This document shows positions 19,257 to 60,731 of a stretch of 64,000 bases of DNA, in pieces. This stretch comes from an archaeon (GTDB taxonomy: Archaea; Nanobdellota; Nanobdellia; Pacearchaeales; GW2011-AR1): positions 14,799 through 78,798 of the forward strand of contig JBDRCH010000005.1 of assembly GCA_043821945.1 (NCBI GenBank), given 5' to 3'. The position numbers and the translations under genes are program-made. The first letter of the stretch is position 1; each line of letters opens with the position of its first letter. The notes below the pieces were generated by a model. That model saw only the letters and a program-made list of their open reading frames with translations. It searched no databases and was not told where the DNA came from.

Positions 19257-19349
19257 CGGCCCCAGAGGGATTTGAACCCACGACACCCAGATATCTCCTG
19301 AAAAATTTACTAAGAGTCTGGTGCTCTAGCCAGACTGAGCTATGGAGCC
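19257..19349 (-). tRNA. tRNA-Lys (anticodon CTT) with an ~18-nt intron after position 37
   Basis: acceptor GGCTCCA/TGGGGCC, D arm GCTC..GAGC, anticodon stem CCAGA/TCTGG, loop CTCTTA[intron]A, T loop TTCAAAT; one U-U mismatch in the T stem. Confidence 0.75.
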
Positions 19350-19442: not shown

Positions 19443-19721
19443 TTACTTAACTAATTTCTGAATATTCTCTATAGCACTCGCGACTTCTTTTCCTCTCTTG
19501 GTCAACTTAATCAATTTAATTCGCCCCTTTTTTTCAAATTCAACCAATTTCAAGAACTCCAAAGTCTGCAGAATCTTAACTGCATGGCTATAGGTACAAT
19601 CAACTTCTTTAGCCAAAAGGCTACCATACCTCATCCTAAGATTCTTATTCAAAAAAACCAACATCAAAGCCGGCTTTCTCCTAAAAAAGATATCAAAGTT
19701 ATCTTTCATCTTATGGTCCAT
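19443..19721 (-). CDS. Winged-helix transcriptional regulator (MarR/ArsR-like); probable start at the internal Met
   Basis: HTH-like segment GSLLAKEVDCTYSHAVKILQTLEFLKLVEFEKKGR; the 32 upstream residues of the listed ORF read like translated AT-rich promoter. Confidence 0.5.
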   Translation of the reverse strand: MDHKMKDNFDIFFRRKPALMLVFLNKNLRMRYGSLLAKEVDCTYSHAVKILQTLEFLKLVEFEKKGRIKLIKLTKRGKEVASAIENIQKLVK

Positions 19722-19881
19722 TTTATTTATGATTATTGGATAAATTCCAAGAGTTATATGTGTTTTAATGTATATATTGAGAAAACATCTTTCTTTTAAA
19801 TGTTTCGGAGTATACATTTCACTAACAAAAAGTAATAACTTTAATAAAAAAGCTTATTAAATAAAATAATTATAAAATATT

Positions 19882-34572: not shown

Positions 34573-34755
34573 ATGGAAACTTATAGATCAATGTTAGAAA
34601 TAGAGAAAAAATTTTACCCCAAAACATTTCAAAAGAGACTAGTTAAAAGAAAATCTATTGTACAGAAAGTATTTGAAGAATTCAAGCCAGAGTATGATAA
34701 AGCATTAGAAGGATATAATTTAGCTATTAAAAAAAGAAAATGTTTCCAAATCTAG
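34573..34755 (+). CDS. Small basic hypothetical protein (60 aa)
   Basis: ORF only. Confidence 0.2.
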   Translation: METYRSMLEIEKKFYPKTFQKRLVKRKSIVQKVFEEFKPEYDKALEGYNLAIKKRKCFQI

Positions 34756-35069
34756 ACCCTAAAAAAATGCAGGCAGTAATGAAGCAGATGGGCATTGCCC
34801 AAGAAGAAATAGATGCTTCAAAAGTAATAATTGAAAGATCAGACGACAAAAAAATTATCATTGAAAATCCAACTGTAACAAAAATCAAAATGCAAGGTCA
34901 AGAAACCTTTCAAATTGCAGGAGAGATTTCAGAAGAATCAGAAGAAATTGGAGTCTCAGAAGAGGACATTCAAACAATAGTTGAAAAAACAGGCTGTAGT
35001 GAAGAAGAAGCTAAAAAAGTATTAGAAAAAACAGGTGATTTGGCTGAAGCAATTTTAGAACTAAGTTAA
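34740..35069 (+). CDS. nac: Nascent polypeptide-associated complex protein (NAC alpha with UBA domain)
   Basis: MFPNLDPKKMQAVMKQMGI NAC start; C-terminal UBA EEDIQTIVEKTGCSEEEAKKVLEKTGDLAEAI. Confidence 0.75.
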   Translation: MFPNLDPKKMQAVMKQMGIAQEEIDASKVIIERSDDKKIIIENPTVTKIKMQGQETFQIAGEISEESEEIGVSEEDIQTIVEKTGCSEEEAKKVLEKTGDLAEAILELS

Positions 35070-35833
35070 TTCTTAACACTACTTCCAGCATCTACAAAAA
35101 TTATCTGGCCAGTAATATTTCTTGATAAACTAGAACATAAAAACAAAGTAGTATTCGCAACATCTTTTTGAGTAATGTTTCTTTTCAAAAAAGATTTCTC
35201 CTTATGAACATCAAGATGCTCTTCAAATCCAGAAATTCCAGACGCAGCCATTGTCGAAATAGGTGAAAAAGAAATTCCATTTACTCTTATTTTTTTGTCA
35301 CCAACATCATTTGCAAGATAACGAACACTTGCTTCAAGAGCAGCTTTAGAAACACCCATAACATTATAATTTTCTGAGACTCTTTGTGACCCAATATAAG
35401 TCATAGCAATAATACTTCCTTCAGAATTCATCATCGGATGAACTCTCCTTGTTAATTCAACAAGAGAATAAGCACTAACTTCTTGACTCTTATTATAACC
35501 ATTTAAATCAACATTCATAAATTTACCTTTAAGAAAATCTCTTTTCGCAAAAGCAATACTATGAATCAAAAAATCAACATTTCCAAATTCTTTCTTAACC
35601 CTCTTAAAAAAACCATCAAGTTGATTATCATCAGTAACATCACAAATCATTCCAAAAGAATTCTTCAAAGACTTCACAAGTTCTTTTGCTGTTTCCTCGC
35701 TTCTATCTTGATAAGCAGCAGCAATCTGAACACCCTCTTGATTCAATATTCTAGCAATATTCCAAGCAACACTACTATCATCTCTAATACCAAAAACAAT
35801 TGCCTTTTTTCCAAATAAATTCAAATCCACCAT
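35066..35833 (-). CDS. fabI: Enoyl-[acyl-carrier-protein] reductase (NADH), bacterial FabI type
   Basis: GKKAIVFGIRDDSSVAWNIARIL nucleotide-binding segment and YNVMGVSKAALEASVRYLA (Tyr-x6-Lys) align closely with E. coli FabI. Confidence 0.88.
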   Translation of the reverse strand: MVDLNLFGKKAIVFGIRDDSSVAWNIARILNQEGVQIAAAYQDRSEETAKELVKSLKNSFGMICDVTDDNQLDGFFKRVKKEFGNVDFLIHSIAFAKRDFLKGKFMNVDLNGYNKSQEVSAYSLVELTRRVHPMMNSEGSIIAMTYIGSQRVSENYNVMGVSKAALEASVRYLANDVGDKKIRVNGISFSPISTMAASGISGFEEHLDVHKEKSFLKRNITQKDVANTTLFLCSSLSRNITGQIIFVDAGSSVKN

Positions 35834-35902
35834 CTAAAACCAAAAAAACACTCATTTAAATAATTTAGTTAATTATTTCAAGTTCAAACACCTTTATATT
35901 TA

Positions 35903-36367
35903 ATGGAAAAATTCATTGAGAATATTCAAAGTGCAAATAAAACAATAAAAATAATTGATCATATGGTTTATGTAACTTTTCCATTAATTAAGGACAAAAG
36001 ACTTCTCTTAAAAATTCTTTTAGAAACAAAAAAAGCAATTGTAGACTGTATTAACTCAATACTTCAATATGAATATTTATACAAAAGAATAAAATTATAC
36101 AAAAATCAAAAAGAAAATCTAAGAACATTCAAGGAAAAATGCGCTTCAAAATATAATATAACAAAACAAGAAATTAATTTAATAAACGAACTTTTCGAAA
36201 TAGCTGAACAACATAAAAAAAGTCCTTTTGAATTTATTAAAGACAAAAAAATAATAATTCTTTCAGAAGAATTACAACCAAAAATAATAACCTTTGAAAA
36301 AACAAAAGAATTTCTAATATTAGGAAAAAATATATTAAATAAAACAAAACAAGTAATTTTGAGATAA
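35903..36367 (+). CDS. Hypothetical protein, paralog A of a tandem pair
   Basis: shares the DH.(V/L)YV..(P)L.K motif and overall K/E-rich helical pattern with the next ORF. Confidence 0.4.
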   Translation: MEKFIENIQSANKTIKIIDHMVYVTFPLIKDKRLLLKILLETKKAIVDCINSILQYEYLYKRIKLYKNQKENLRTFKEKCASKYNITKQEINLINELFEIAEQHKKSPFEFIKDKKIIILSEELQPKIITFEKTKEFLILGKNILNKTKQVILR

Positions 36368-36421: not shown

Positions 36422-36862
36422 ATGGAAGATATTATTAAGGAAAAGATAAGCGCAGATCATTTATTGTATGTAAGTTTAAAATATACTAAAACTTGCGATG
36501 TCATAGTTAACCTTCTTATTCGATGGAGCAGACTAATTGAAACCTGTAATAATGAAGTCTTAAAACACACAAAGAAGAAGAAAAAGATTTCTTCAATATC
36601 AGAAAACCCTGTAGGAAGAATAGAACAAATAAAAAAGATATTCAAAAAAGATAAAGAATTTTTAGAAGTGATTGAACTCTATGATATGTTCAAAAAAATT
36701 AATGAACTAAAAAAAGAGCGAATTGGTGAATTCAGAAAAAATGTAACCTTGAAAGTTTTCTTCAAAGGAGAAGAAATAAACATAAACCTTGAAAAACTAA
36801 AAGTCTATTCAGAATTGTTAGAAAAATTTGTAAATACCTCAAAGAAATTCTTAAAATCCTAA
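36422..36862 (+). CDS. Hypothetical protein, paralog B of the tandem pair
   Basis: ADHLLYVSLKYTKT aligns with IDHMVYVTFPLIKD of paralog A. Confidence 0.4.
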   Translation: MEDIIKEKISADHLLYVSLKYTKTCDVIVNLLIRWSRLIETCNNEVLKHTKKKKKISSISENPVGRIEQIKKIFKKDKEFLEVIELYDMFKKINELKKERIGEFRKNVTLKVFFKGEEININLEKLKVYSELLEKFVNTSKKFLKS

Positions 36863-45030: not shown

Positions 45031-45459
45031 ATGAAACTTCTAAAAGAGATAAAATTCATTGTAATACATCATTCTCATAGGAATATAGATTCAATTGAAA
45101 GGATCAAAAACATTCATGTCAATATAAACAAATGGGAAGATATTGGTTATCACTGGATCATTGACAAAGAGGGTAATCTCATAAAAGGAAGAAATGAAAA
45201 ATATATTGGAGCTCATGTTTATGGACACAACGATAATTCATTAAGTGTTTGTCTAATTGGAAATTTGGATGAATTTTATCCAACTCAAAAACAAATTCAA
45301 ACATTGATTAAATTTCTAAAAGAGAATTCATTAAAATACAAAATTCCAAAAGAAAATATTCTTGGACATAATGAATTTACAAATGTTACAAAAACTTGCC
45401 CTGGAAAACTCCTAAACATAGATGAAATTAAAGAGATAATGAATGATACCAAATCTTAA
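45031..45459 (+). CDS. Zinc N-acetylmuramoyl-L-alanine amidase (Amidase_2, T7-lysozyme/PGRP/AmpD fold), no signal peptide
   Basis: IVIHHS (Zn His), GYHWII (catalytic Tyr), LGHNEF (Zn His), TKTCPG (Lys/Cys) align with T7 lysozyme. Confidence 0.85.
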   Translation: MKLLKEIKFIVIHHSHRNIDSIERIKNIHVNINKWEDIGYHWIIDKEGNLIKGRNEKYIGAHVYGHNDNSLSVCLIGNLDEFYPTQKQIQTLIKFLKENSLKYKIPKENILGHNEFTNVTKTCPGKLLNIDEIKEIMNDTKS

Positions 45460-54129: not shown

Positions 54130-54402
54130 GTGTTAATCGGTAGATTTTTAAGTAACATTTTATTTTATATAATTATGAATAAAGAGCTCCCTATAAAATC
54201 TTGGAGATGGATTTTTTATATTCTTGGTTGGATTTTTGGAGCATTAAATCTTGTGTTTTGGGCTTGGCAATATTTAATGTATATGGGAGATGAAAAAAGT
54301 GACAAATTTATTTCTAATCAATTCCATAAGAGAGTATATTATTGGGGGGTTTTATTTACAGCGATAATCTTAATAACAATTATTTTTGTGTTGATAGATT
54401 AA
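54130..54402 (+). CDS. Small membrane protein (90 aa)
   Basis: two hydrophobic helices. Confidence 0.3.
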   Translation: MLIGRFLSNILFYIIMNKELPIKSWRWIFYILGWIFGALNLVFWAWQYLMYMGDEKSDKFISNQFHKRVYYWGVLFTAIILITIIFVLID

Positions 54403-55279
54403 TCAATTCCAACCATTTATTATCAGAATTTAATTTTAAGTCAGTTGCTAATTCATAAGGGCATCTTTTAAGAGTTTGATGTTTAGTTATGAAATTGTAA
54501 TAAACTGCATAACCTTTCATAATACTATTTACACTCTCTACACTTCCGTGTAATCCTCTGAAAGTTTTTGTTCTGTGTCTTATTTTATTATGTAACCTTT
54601 CTATTAAAATATTAAAACCTTCACCTTTAGAAGCATTTACTTGATTATGCTCTACTCCGAAATATTTGTTTTTACTTTTTAATCCAAAAGTTTTTCTTAT
54701 TGCATTTTCATAAGTTAAAAGTCCGTCAGTAGTTACGACTTTAATCTGTTTTTCTGTTTTCTCTTTCGCTTTCATTAGAACAGATTTTATCTCATCTTTC
54801 CCTCTTGACTTACAAAATTCAGAAGCTACCATAAAACGAGTTTTAGTATCTATACTATCAATAAACCAATTTTCTTCTTTTCCACCTTTAATATCCTTTC
54901 TTCGTGAATATTGCATTTCATCTATTTGTAATTCACTTCCTGTTTGAAGTTTAAGTTTATCTGTGAAATTACTAATTTGATTTGAATACTTTACAACCCA
55001 TTTATAGATTGTAACATCTGAACTATTATGGGGGTAAAAAGCCCTTAGATGTTCTCTTATTTTTCTTGTGCTTACTCCTCTAAAAAATAAGTCAAGACAT
55101 AAAGTAATCTTTTGAGGATTATTTCTCATTCTCTTGAAGCCGTCATTCAAAACAAATCTGTGAGAACATTCCTTACATTTGTATCTTTGAATTAATCCTC
55201 TGTTCTCTGTCTTTCGTTTGCCGTCTTTCTTGATTAATCTTGACTGACATTTTGAGCATATTATTTCTTTGTTTTTCAT
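54380..55279 (-). mobile_element. IS1/IS1595-like DDE transposase with an N-terminal zinc finger (probable start at MKNKEII; the listed ORF's first 24 codons translate the upstream repeat)
   Basis: CSKCQS...YKCKECSHRF finger; LQIDEMQYSRRKD...WFIDSIDTKTRFMVA...VVTTDGLLTYENA DDE pattern. Confidence 0.6.
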
Positions 55280-55308
55280 ATTATAATTAGGCACCCGAAC
55301 TATATAAA
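55275..55308. repeat. 34-nt promoter-like repeat, copy 1 (ATAATTAGGCACCCGAACTATATAAATGTATCGG), 29/34 identical to copy 2
   Basis: lies immediately upstream of the transposase start on the coding strand; contains TTTATATA about 21 nt before the ATG. Confidence 0.65.
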
Positions 55309-55404
55309 TGTATCGGTACCCGAATATATTTATATTATTATATATAATCATATAGTTTCAGAAAAATAGGAAAGGTTTATATATGTTATCATATATGATA
55401 ATAT

Positions 55405-56001
55405 ATGAGTAATAATGATAATACACTTTTCTGTTATAGATGTTATCACCTTTGGAAAAAAAGGAAATCTGTTGCCCCAAAATATTGCCCTAAGTGTAAA
55501 AGTCCTTATTGGAATAGACCAAGAAGAAAAGTAAAAAAAGATATAGTATTAAAAATGGAAGAAATGATTATAAAAATTCACGATAGAATAATTGAATTAA
55601 GTGGTGGGGAAAAGGGTGTCAGAGAAGAAGGTGGAATATACAACTCTACATTTAAATTAATTAACCATCAATATAAAAATCAAAGAAATCCTATTAAAAT
55701 AGGAGCATTTGCTCTGAATGAGTTTGCTAAAAGACATTATTTTGTTGATGGAAATAAAAGAACAGCTTACGCAATCTCTAAAATATTTATGTTAATTAAT
55801 AGATGTCATTTGATGATAGATTATGGTGAGGCAACAAATTTTATGCTTAAAGTTGCAGAGCACAAAAGCAAAGTTACTTATGATGATATAAAAATTTGGC
55901 TTACAAAATATTGTAAAATTATAGATAGAAAAGATGTGGAAAATTATTTAAACAAAGCATTCGTAAATGTAACATTAGGGAGTGGAGAAAATGGCGAATA
56001 A
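55405..56001 (+). CDS. Fic/Doc-family protein (Doc-like toxin) with an N-terminal zinc-ribbon fusion
   Basis: HYFVDGNKRTA (HxFx(D/E)GNxR Fic/Doc motif); N-terminal CYRC...CPKC. Confidence 0.65.
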   Translation: MSNNDNTLFCYRCYHLWKKRKSVAPKYCPKCKSPYWNRPRRKVKKDIVLKMEEMIIKIHDRIIELSGGEKGVREEGGIYNSTFKLINHQYKNQRNPIKIGAFALNEFAKRHYFVDGNKRTAYAISKIFMLINRCHLMIDYGEATNFMLKVAEHKSKVTYDDIKIWLTKYCKIIDRKDVENYLNKAFVNVTLGSGENGE

Positions 56002-56863: not shown

Positions 56864-57391
56864 TTATCTCTTCTTCCCAAATTTTCTATTAAACCAATAA
56901 GCTAAAAATATCACTGCAGCCAAGCCCAATAAAGAAATTATAAATCTAAACAAATCATCACCATATCTCCAATATCCTCCTGCCCCATAAACAATTGTTC
57001 CAACTCCACCCCCCATTAAACCTGCTCCAACAGCTTCTAAATGAAACAAAAATCCCCCAATAACAAGGATCAAAATTCCCAAAGGAATTGAAATATAAAA
57101 AATCTTTTTAGACCTTGTTTCCTGTGCATTTTCATAATCTTGCCTACAAATATAATCTCTATCACAATAACCTTGTGGACAGGGGGTTGTCACACATCTA
57201 ATATCTTCAGAGGTCCATTTTCCTTCAACACCAATGCATTGCTGTTCATTTTCAATTATTTGCCCAGTTTTAAATTCTCCACAATAATCTTCATATTCCT
57301 GAGCAGGATAAAATACACTAATTCCATAAACAGTTACAAAAATAGTAAGAATAAGAATTGCAATTCCAAGAACAAGATTCTTAATTTCCAT
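56864..57391 (-). CDS. Membrane protein with a Cys-rich extracytoplasmic loop
   Basis: N-terminal TM; 8 Cys in the loop; Gly-rich C-terminal TM helices. Confidence 0.4.
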   Translation of the reverse strand: MEIKNLVLGIAILILTIFVTVYGISVFYPAQEYEDYCGEFKTGQIIENEQQCIGVEGKWTSEDIRCVTTPCPQGYCDRDYICRQDYENAQETRSKKIFYISIPLGILILVIGGFLFHLEAVGAGLMGGGVGTIVYGAGGYWRYGDDLFRFIISLLGLAAVIFLAYWFNRKFGKKR

Positions 57392-57442
57392 AATTCACTA
57401 AAGCATAAAACATTTATAAACTCTTTGTTCACTTTTATAATA

Positions 57443-57853
57443 ATGGAACAATATGAAAAATTATTAGAAGAAGCATACAAAAAAGTAAAACAAGTTAACA
57501 CATCTAGTTCGCGATTGGAAATTCCAAAAATAGAAGGACACTTTGAAGGTAAAAAAACAATTCTCACGAATTTCTTTTCAATTGTATCTCATTTAAGAAG
57601 AAAACCAGAACACTTTCAAAAATTTATTTTAAGGGAACTTGCAGCTTCAGGACAAAAAGAAGGCGATCGTCTTGTGCTGAATACAAAAGTGCCAAGCACG
57701 AAAATCAATCAAAAAATAGAACAATACGCAAAAGAATTTGTTTTATGTAAAGAATGTGGAAAACCAGACACAGAATTAAAAAAAGAAGATAGATTAACTT
57801 TTGTTCATTGTTTAGCTTGTGGGGCAAAACACAGCGTGAGAAGTAAGATATAA
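57443..57853 (+). CDS. eif2b: Translation initiation factor 2 beta subunit (aIF2-beta)
   Basis: C-terminal zinc ribbon CKECGKPDTEL...CLACGA; start at the internal Met of the listed ORF. Confidence 0.8.
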   Translation: MEQYEKLLEEAYKKVKQVNTSSSRLEIPKIEGHFEGKKTILTNFFSIVSHLRRKPEHFQKFILRELAASGQKEGDRLVLNTKVPSTKINQKIEQYAKEFVLCKECGKPDTELKKEDRLTFVHCLACGAKHSVRSKI

Positions 57854-60610: not shown

Positions 60611-60731
60611 CGTCCCCGGCTGGACTCGAACCAGCGACCTATCGGTTTCTGCAAAATCAAAAGATTTTGTAGCAAATTTTGACATTTCAAAATTTAACAG
60701 CCGATCGCTCTACCAACTGAGCCACAGGGAC
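60611..60731 (-). tRNA. tRNA-Asn (anticodon GTT) with an ~48-nt intron after position 37
   Basis: acceptor GTCCCTG/CGGGGAC, D arm GCTC-AGTTGGTA-GAGC, anticodon stem ATCGG/CCGAT, loop CTGTTA[intron]A, T arm GCTGG-TTCGAGT-CCAGC. Confidence 0.75.

Follow-up and report, generated by a model that had tools for sequence, protein, structure and literature searches.

Within a stretch of 64,000 nucleotides from a Pacearchaeales archaeon (contig JBDRCH010000005.1, positions 14,799 to 78,798; called the window below, always at its full length), one gene encodes a protein of the FabI type, the enoyl-acyl carrier protein (ACP) reductase family, and stands amid about 60 other genes that are archaeal. It occupies the sole open reading frame (ORF) at exactly 35066..35833 of the minus strand, and its product has already been named 'enoyl-ACP reductase' in GenBank. 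The gene is convergent with that of NAC (nascent polypeptide-associated complex), and the 3' ends of the two share 4 bp. The features on which the argument leans are the following, in window coordinates:

35066..35833, minus strand: predicted coding sequence of a FabI-type enoyl-thioester reductase, 255 aa, ATG start (GenBank MFH1787436.1)
35765..35791, minus strand: dinucleotide-binding motif G15-x5-S21-x-A23 (GIRDDSSVA), the FabI form of the Rossmann glycine motif, from the translation
35345..35398, minus strand: catalytic segment YIGSQRVSENYNVMGVSK with Y146 and Y156-x6-K163, from the translation
35210..35272, minus strand: substrate-binding loop and helix alpha-8, residues 188-208, SFSPISTMAASGISGFEEHLD, from the translation and alignment
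34740..35069, plus strand: NAC gene (Pfam NAC, 2e-16)

The translated ORF matches the Pfam family PF13561 'Enoyl-(ACP) reductase' over residues 15-251 with an E-value of 1.1e-78 and 264.6 bits (cut-off 27). When the sequences of solved structures were searched, the top 47 matches have all been FabI-type enoyl-ACP reductases, with the best E-values for Thermus thermophilus (1ulu, 1.6e-62), Bacillus (1e-61) and E. coli (1c14, 3.3e-53), while far weaker scores go to InhA and to the enoyl reductases of plants and apicomplexans. Full-length identity amounts to 37.6% with E. coli FabI (reference sequence from NC_000913.3) and to ~43% with the Thermus and Bacillus enzymes. An AlphaFold model built on 30 homologues has reached a predicted local distance difference test (pLDDT) of 84 and a predicted template modelling score (pTM) of 0.86, and its closest superpositions on FabI crystal structures give template modelling (TM) scores of 0.92-0.94 at a root-mean-square deviation (rmsd) of 1.5-1.8 A. 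All of the best 50 fold matches in the PDB are FabI (TM 0.87-0.94, rmsd 1.5-2.3 A). Among the NCBIfam models, the E-value of the best FabI model (2.8e-83) lies far ahead of those of FabL (1.2e-41) and InhA (2.5e-40).

In FabI, a G-x5-S-x-A motif stands for T-G-x3-G-x-G, and the Tyr-x3-Lys spacing of classical short-chain dehydrogenases/reductases (SDRs) is replaced by Tyr-x6-Lys. The residues G15, S21 and A23 of the window protein align to G13, S19 and A21 of E. coli FabI and recur in 116, 119 and 117 of the 120 closest homologues, respectively. Y146, Y156 and K163 align to the equally numbered E. coli residues; Y156 and K163 are present in 120/120 homologues, and position 146 is taken by Y in 73, by F in 39 and by H in seven. 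The substrate-binding loop has the length of its E. coli counterpart, with no indel across residues 186-222, and P191, T194, A196, I200 and F203 in this region, as well as M159, are conserved in the alignment. Because the Pfam, solved-structure and fold matches agree and the intact catalytic and cofactor residues are conserved over 120 homologues, we assign the protein, as far as sequence and model can tell, to the FabI-type enoyl reductases of the SDR superfamily with their Tyr-x6-Lys signature; it is apparently a working enzyme. An earlier sequence-only reading had proposed this very assignment with an intact Tyr/Lys dyad, and the alignment bears it out. Its further statement that the protein aligns almost residue for residue with E. 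coli FabI is true of the nucleotide-binding and catalytic segments that it cited, but not of the protein as a whole, given the overall identity of 37.6%.

According to established FabI enzymology, hydride would pass from NADH to C3 of a trans-2-enoyl thioester, Y156, aided by Y146, would stabilise and protonate the enolate, and K163 would hold the nicotinamide ribose, with a saturated acyl thioester as the expected product. The residues for the hydride-transfer, enolate and ribose steps are all intact. At the end of strand beta-2 the protein reads Y-Q-D, which is acidic and lacks the Arg/Lys pair used for NADPH by Staphylococcus FabI, and from this NADH rather than NADPH is the predicted cofactor. 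Some homologues of ~291 aa carry an N-terminal extension, in which an internal Met aligns with the start of the window protein; the extension seems to reflect a start called further upstream.

In a database of 5.8 billion proteins, the best 120 matches share 55-73% identity with the window protein. Those with names are nearly all labelled 'archaeon', Nanoarchaeota, Pacearchaeota, Woesearchaeota or Nanoarchaeia, the exceptions being one Patescibacteria and one 'Syntrophales'. This DPANN-dominated FabI clade comprises more than 120 sequences. In a library clustered at 50% identity it is represented by one or two members (54-56%; one labelled Nanoarchaeota), and the next representatives beyond it, at 45-48% identity, carry no taxonomic names. 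A scan of genome contigs with the single window protein has given, among the matches listed, five loci, one of them of the clade type (L008, labelled 'Methanosarcinales'; L and P numbers are the locus and protein handles of this analysis). The search of metagenome contigs with the clade alignment has given, among the matches listed, mostly FabIs of 42-49% identity and two clade-type loci; these more distant FabIs were reused as the comparison set for a tree and as a gene-linkage control.

Two neighbour-joining trees were computed with 200 bootstraps each. In the first, 119 of the matches and the proteins of L008, L019 and L020 are set apart from 82 other FabIs with 97% support, and the window protein falls into a nine-member subclade that is likewise supported at 97%. 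In the second, built from 130 representatives of the 50% identity clusters, the clade receives 77% and the subclade 86%; every deeper node stays at or below 14% bootstrap, and neither a sister group nor a donor is named. Between the subclade and the main DPANN group, identity is 60-66%. These trees place the protein in a DPANN-dominated clade nested inside an otherwise bacterial FabI family, and since the family is otherwise bacterial, a bacterial origin of the clade at some depth is the sensible and economical reading. To this extent the horizontal acquisition suggested by the sequence-only reading can be upheld. That reading had also named a phylogeny with an archaeal-specific SDR clade of different substrate as a finding that would speak against its proposal; the clade is indeed dominated by archaea, yet its place is within FabI, and there is no sign of another substrate. 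A Patescibacteria FabI (P0021, at L013) is 81% identical to a Nanoarchaeota FabI (P0040, at L101), and its surroundings are truly bacterial (EF-P, a Mur ligase and D-Ala-D-Ala carboxypeptidase), which points to a fairly recent exchange between these two ultra-small radiations that may be continuing inside the clade.

In the window itself the gene looks like a resident. Relative to 60 window genes, its GC content of 0.314 (z=+0.5), its GC content at third codon positions of 0.172 (GC3, z=-0.6) and its synonymous-codon log-likelihood (z=+0.2) are all within 0.7 standard deviations of the mean, in a window of ~30% GC throughout. The comparison of GC and codon usage with the neighbours, which had been proposed as a check on acquisition, has thus returned native values. 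The closest homologues are P0002 (73% identity), P0003 (71%, labelled Nanoarchaeota) and P0004 (66%, labelled Pacearchaeota). Related loci have been found in three independent assemblies from other samples (L005, L006 and L007). Two of them, L005 and L006, share the window order GT2-ScpB-aRF1-ValRS-NAC-FabI-two hypotheticals-MinD-tRNA-binding protein-MetRS; in L007 (labelled Pacearchaeota) the surroundings are rearranged and the FabI-NAC convergence is kept. NAC is convergent and lies within ~0.7 kb of the FabI 3' end in 3/3. We regard NAC as a conserved neighbour and synteny anchor, not as a functional partner of FabI. Identity of FabI to the three syntenic orthologues is 71/73/66%, on par with that of the flanking housekeeping genes (NAC 76/68/66, MinD 75/77, aRF1 78/76, MetRS 71/54, ValRS 62/59 and the ligase 76/70). 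The ratio of nonsynonymous to synonymous substitution rates (dN/dS) of FabI is 0.16-0.28 against the three orthologues, at a dS of about 1. The gene is thus old and native in this lineage, and purifying selection on it indicates that it does something useful. Its vertical inheritance goes back to the common ancestor of the four syntenic genomes, if not further.

Alternatively, this genome could have received the gene by a recent horizontal transfer, or a bacterial gene could have been joined to an archaeal contig by chimeric assembly or contamination; this would be suggested by an overwhelmingly bacterial family, by the single gene of this kind amid archaeal informational genes and by the interdomain exchange that the 81% identical Patescibacteria and Nanoarchaeota pair documents for the clade. 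Yet the 4-bp overlap of the FabI and NAC 3' ends and the same arrangement in three independent assemblies leave no room for a chimeric join, and native composition, conserved synteny and divergence in step with the flanking genes effectively refute a transfer of recent date, which we consider scarcely credible. A notable acquisition by this very genome, a candidate in the sequence-only reading, is likewise not supported, on these grounds and in view of the membership of the protein in an archaeal-dominated clade and of earlier reports of FabI, FabG and FabZ in DPANN.

What the enzyme may do is suggested by gene neighbourhoods elsewhere in the clade. DedA/VTT proteins are lipid transporters or scramblases. 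A gene for such a membrane protein comes next after FabI, on the same strand; 6 nt separate the two in L015 and L008, whose DedA proteins share 69% identity, and 184 nt in the contig of P0079. The pair is probably a conserved operon, since the FabIs P0079 and P0109 share only 68% identity. In the Patescibacteria genome (L013), FabI is found ~1.5 kb from ACPS, a phosphopantetheinyl transferase, and from an 835-aa fusion protein in which an AMP-dependent ligase is combined with an ACP domain and a PlsC-type acyltransferase. In Woesearchaeota the same ACPS/fusion module adjoins Topo VI, Spt5, L11 and S17e, and in Aenigmarchaeota its neighbours are an S-layer protein, Cdc48 and PTH2; it is further present in Patescibacteria, Dependentiae/Babeliales and Armatimonadota. 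By its domains, it looks like a self-contained system for fatty-acid activation and lysolipid re-acylation; a literature search for an 'acyl-ACP synthetase' fusion in the Candidate Phyla Radiation has found none. The premise of the sequence-only reading that archaea generally lack an ACP system is weakened for DPANN, some of which carry a phosphopantetheinyl transferase and an ACP-domain fusion in truly archaeal contexts. In the main Woese/Nanoarchaeota group, from marine and groundwater sources, FabI is recurrently located near genes for cupredoxin/CuA-like ('nosZ-like'), Rieske, rhodanese, CDGSH and ferredoxin proteins, and such a redox gene cluster near FabI is also present in one Patescibacteria genome. 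The positions of these neighbourhoods are as follows, in the coordinates of each locus:

L015 10001-11425: FabI-DedA/VTT pair
L008 1743-3272: FabI-DedA/VTT pair
P0079 contig: FabI-DedA/VTT pair
L099 9612-12538: ACPS (108-129 aa at these loci) and fusion (~810-845 aa)
L100 9682-12436: ACPS and fusion
L013 5676-8531: ACPS and fusion
L001 10886-11974: redox cluster near FabI
L015 12591-16736: redox cluster near FabI
L101 2991-4665: redox cluster near FabI
L013 1645-2151: redox cluster near FabI

A link to lipoate or 2-oxoacid dehydrogenase metabolism, to which marine homologues adjoining E1/E2 genes had given rise, has been dropped as the neighbourhood of one group, which does not recur in this window. 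As a separate observation, genes of the bacterial methylerythritol phosphate (MEP) pathway to isoprenoids, namely an IspD-IspF fusion, Dxr and a GHMP kinase that is possibly IspE, lie a few kb from FabI at L101 5974-10587 (labelled Nanoarchaeota); the MEP pathway has been mentioned for these groups (PMC10936187).

Because of the DedA/VTT and ACPS/fusion links elsewhere in the clade, a lipid-salvage role is favoured. The enzyme would catalyse the final reduction in an incomplete fatty-acyl pathway of bacterial type, by which fatty acids for membrane lipids would be salvaged, elongated or re-tailored, with a stand-alone ACP, an ACP domain in cis as in other DPANN, or coenzyme A (CoA) as the conceivable acyl carrier. 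Such a reductive step in lipid salvage or tailoring is probably its physiological role; we consider a complete type II fatty acid synthase for de novo synthesis less likely, and a hypothetical action on host-derived fatty acids, as brought up by the sequence-only reading, is plausible. Taken as a whole, we give a probability of about 0.7 to the reading that the gene is a native, vertically inherited DPANN FabI and a probable step in a partial fatty-acyl pathway.

Several observations weigh against this reading. The NCBIfam FabI equivalog models score the protein at 195-279 bits, below their curated cut-offs of 299-477 (279.1 bits versus 391 for the best of them); each model appears to span only part of FabI diversity, and we do not take these scores as evidence against membership. 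In the subclade of the window protein, SFSP replaces the usual SAGP at residues 188-191 (A189F, G190S), at the start of the cofactor/substrate loop. The residues K201, R204 and K205, by which E. coli FabI docks ACP, are S, E and E here, and the net charge of residues 198-208 averages -1.24 in the clade versus +0.74 in other FabIs. This difference in charge is statistically strong and at the same time a weak hint, since shared ancestry confounds it and the three residues of E. coli do not hold for FabIs in general, being likewise not conserved in Thermus FabI, Bacillus FabI or 82 other FabIs. Moreover, the DedA and ACPS/fusion links come from other clade members, not from this genome or its closest relatives; homologues of ACPS, DedA, cupredoxin and Rieske proteins are all missing from the window.

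Partners in fatty acid synthesis are missing from it as well. Pfam, run on all non-nested window ORFs of at least 100 aa (nested or overlapping alternatives being skipped), has shown no other fab or acp gene in the 64 kb. Searches with phmmer for E. coli PlsX, FabH, FabD, FabG, AcpP, FabF and FabZ in six-frame window fragments of at least 30 aa have returned the FabI ORF only, and a hidden Markov model (HMM) of 120 carrier domains and AcpP has found no match in the window. The remark of the sequence-only reading that no other fab or acp genes are visible has therefore been confirmed by all three approaches. About the genome as a whole this absence tells little, because bacteria, too, normally have fabI apart from the other fab genes. 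In E. coli it is flanked by yciW and ycjD, a long way from the fab cluster, and among 78 presumably bacterial FabI loci (metagenome contigs of 42-49% identity to the window protein, many of them short and all without taxonomic labels) only one has a second fab gene in the fetched stretch.

The main rival explanation dispenses with ACP. The enzyme could act on an enoyl-CoA, either in a CoA-based, archaeal-style synthesis or in a fermentation that reoxidises NADH by reducing crotonyl-CoA to butyryl-CoA. Bacterial FabIs accept crotonyl-CoA in vitro, the window holds neither an ACP nor an ACPS gene, and the S/E/E docking region belongs to a clade more negative than other FabIs. Fatty acid synthesis as characterised in archaea is CoA-based (bioRxiv 10.1101/2024.07.05.601840; PMC3533463), but its enoyl-CoA reductase is an MDR-family protein (medium-chain dehydrogenase/reductase), not one of the FabI-type SDRs (bioRxiv 10.1101/2024.07.05.601840). 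Pfam has detected no thiolase, 3-hydroxyacyl-CoA dehydrogenase or crotonase in the window, the docking residues are not conserved in FabIs of proven ACP dependence either, and some DPANN do possess ACPS and an ACP domain. Taking into account both sides, we hold CoA dependence to be possible but rather improbable. Neofunctionalisation would go further: an SDR of FabI type, in the whole clade or in the SFSP subclade, would have kept fold and dyad while turning to another carbonyl or activated C=C substrate that has no relation to fatty acids. Scores under every NCBIfam FabI equivalog cut-off, the Y/F/H variation at position 146 across the clade together with A189F/G190S in the subclade, and the redox neighbours (cupredoxin, Rieske, rhodanese, ferredoxin) of the main Woese/Nanoarchaeota group, which also appear in PMC10936187, would be in line with such a change. 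It is opposed by ~43% full-length identity to biochemically proven FabIs with a substrate loop free of indels, by structural matches of which the best 50 are all FabI, by the conservation of Y156, K163, M159, F203, P191 and T194, and by a window in which no neighbour suggests an alternative substrate. We consider it decidedly less probable than use of CoA.

Beyond the native FabI in a partial acyl pathway, a broader and quite speculative picture may be drawn, to which we assign a low probability. FabI, DedA/VTT and the ACPS/fusion module would be a bacterial-type acyl-lipid toolkit of many Woese-, Pace- and Nanoarchaeota, with parts shared with Patescibacteria and Dependentiae, by which fatty acids or lysolipids captured from bacterial partners are completed or re-tailored and built into ester-linked acyl lipids. 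If true, these archaea would have crossed the lipid divide in part, and it would be bacteria, not other archaea, that they live on. The window also contains a gene for an N-acetylmuramoyl-L-alanine amidase, a peptidoglycan-cutting enzyme (Amidase_2, 2e-20; 45031-45459, plus strand), which is conserved in the syntenic relative L005 (869-1306). This amidase hints at an organism that interacts with bacteria and would be in keeping with a bacterial partner. Fatty-acid enzymes found in archaea are relevant to the 'lipid divide' and to the membrane supply of ultra-small symbiotic archaea, and the carrier-domain acyl-transfer module and the FabI-DedA pair in related DPANN make a lipid-salvage role testable. 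What this enzyme reduces, in an organism that presumably does not synthesise fatty acids, is a modest question of interest.

The archaeal setting of the gene, described as informational by the sequence-only reading, is plain from its neighbours. They include an RFC-like protein, FEN1, PolB, Cdc48, a topoisomerase, Nre, a RadB-like protein, ScpB, aRF1, ValRS, NAC, MinD, MetRS, L15e, an ATP-dependent DNA ligase, TBP, MCM, aIF2-beta, aIF1A, a KH protein and FtsZ, to which Rfam adds four tRNAs. Two tRNA genes of unusual length and the divergent region upstream of FabI complete the list of features:

19257-19349, minus strand: tRNA gene, 93 nt (found by Rfam, missed by ARAGORN)
60611-60731, minus strand: tRNA gene, 121 nt (found by Rfam, missed by ARAGORN)
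35834..35902: divergent intergenic region between FabI and a 154-aa hypothetical gene, 69 bp
35854-35864, minus strand: TATA-like A/T-rich element ATTATTTAAAT, ~25 nt upstream of the FabI ATG, read from the sequence

The two tRNA genes presumably hold introns. The spacing of the TATA-like element would fit a leaderless archaeal transcript, and in a genome of 30% GC it may be regarded as a candidate element. On the far side of the intergenic region, divergent from FabI, two adjacent hypotheticals of 154 and 146 aa (35903-36367 and 36422-36862, both on the plus strand) have no Pfam match; they are kept at the same position in L005 and L006 with 57-76% identity. Their N-termini are weakly alike (E=1e-4), and they may be distant paralogues. 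The 154-aa gene is unusually AT-rich (GC 0.20, z=-3.2).

A few further observations concern the window and its relatives in general. A DDE/Mutator-type transposase (323 aa) adjoins a Fic/DOC-family protein (198 aa) at 54380-56001, and the pair suggests a small mobile or accessory island. Atypical codon usage has been noted for the ORFs 19443-19817 (minus strand) and 57140-57853 (plus strand), with GC3 at z=+4.0 and +2.1, respectively; in the latter an aIF2-beta match is limited to residues 119-230, and the TTG start listed for it is probably too far upstream. Inteins occur in related genomes: aRF1 measures 541 aa in an intein-bearing form versus 362 aa in the window, and gyrase B inteins are found too. 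The MCM of L007, whose MCM domain is in two pieces, has 1015 aa versus 676 aa for that of the window and may hold an intein as well (intein and MCM relatives: L006 12639-14264; L007 5867-8914; P0079 contig). A full-length RelA/SpoT homologue is encoded on a Pacearchaeota contig (L007 3786-5681).

Compared with known systems, the window protein is closest to bacterial FabI as represented by E. coli (1c14/1qsg), T. thermophilus (1ulu/2wyw) and Bacillus (2qio/3ojf). It is alike in length, with a core free of indels, and shares the G-x5-S-x-A motif, Y146/Y156-x6-K163, the length of the substrate loop and a fold that superposes at TM 0.92-0.94 and 1.5-1.8 A rmsd. It differs by an identity of only 38-43%, by SFSP in place of SAGP at 188-191, by the acidic patch at the ACP-docking site, by NCBIfam scores below cut-off and by its archaeal host without type II fatty acid synthesis genes in 64 kb. 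FabL and InhA belong to the same SDR superfamily and catalyse the same reaction; the protein matches them much more weakly, and it does not have the enlarged substrate loop of the InhA type. The equivalent last reduction of the elongation cycle in an archaeon without stand-alone ACP is performed by Saci_1115 of Sulfolobus acidocaldarius, a CoA-dependent and NADPH-dependent enoyl-CoA reductase of the MDR family (bioRxiv 10.1101/2024.07.05.601840), whose fold is unrelated to that of FabI and which is thus an analogue, not a homologue.

FabI in DPANN archaea is already known, and the gene described here is no new kind of system. FabG, FabI and FabZ have been reported in DPANN genomes from oxygen-deficient zones, the Fab proteins having their best matches in other DPANN and then in bacteria, and an adjacency of FabI and cupredoxin ('nosZ-like') has been mentioned (mBio 2024, PMC10936187); the supplements of that paper hold nothing on fab genes per genome. 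The finding is of the same kind, namely bacterial-type reductases of the ACP pathway in Woesearchaeota, Nanoarchaeota and related genomes, and a marine homologue of the present analysis (P0111) shows the same FabI-cupredoxin adjacency. Unlike that main group, the window protein belongs to a separate, more divergent subclade at 60-66% identity, whose FabI adjoins NAC and has no cupredoxin, Rieske or DedA neighbours.

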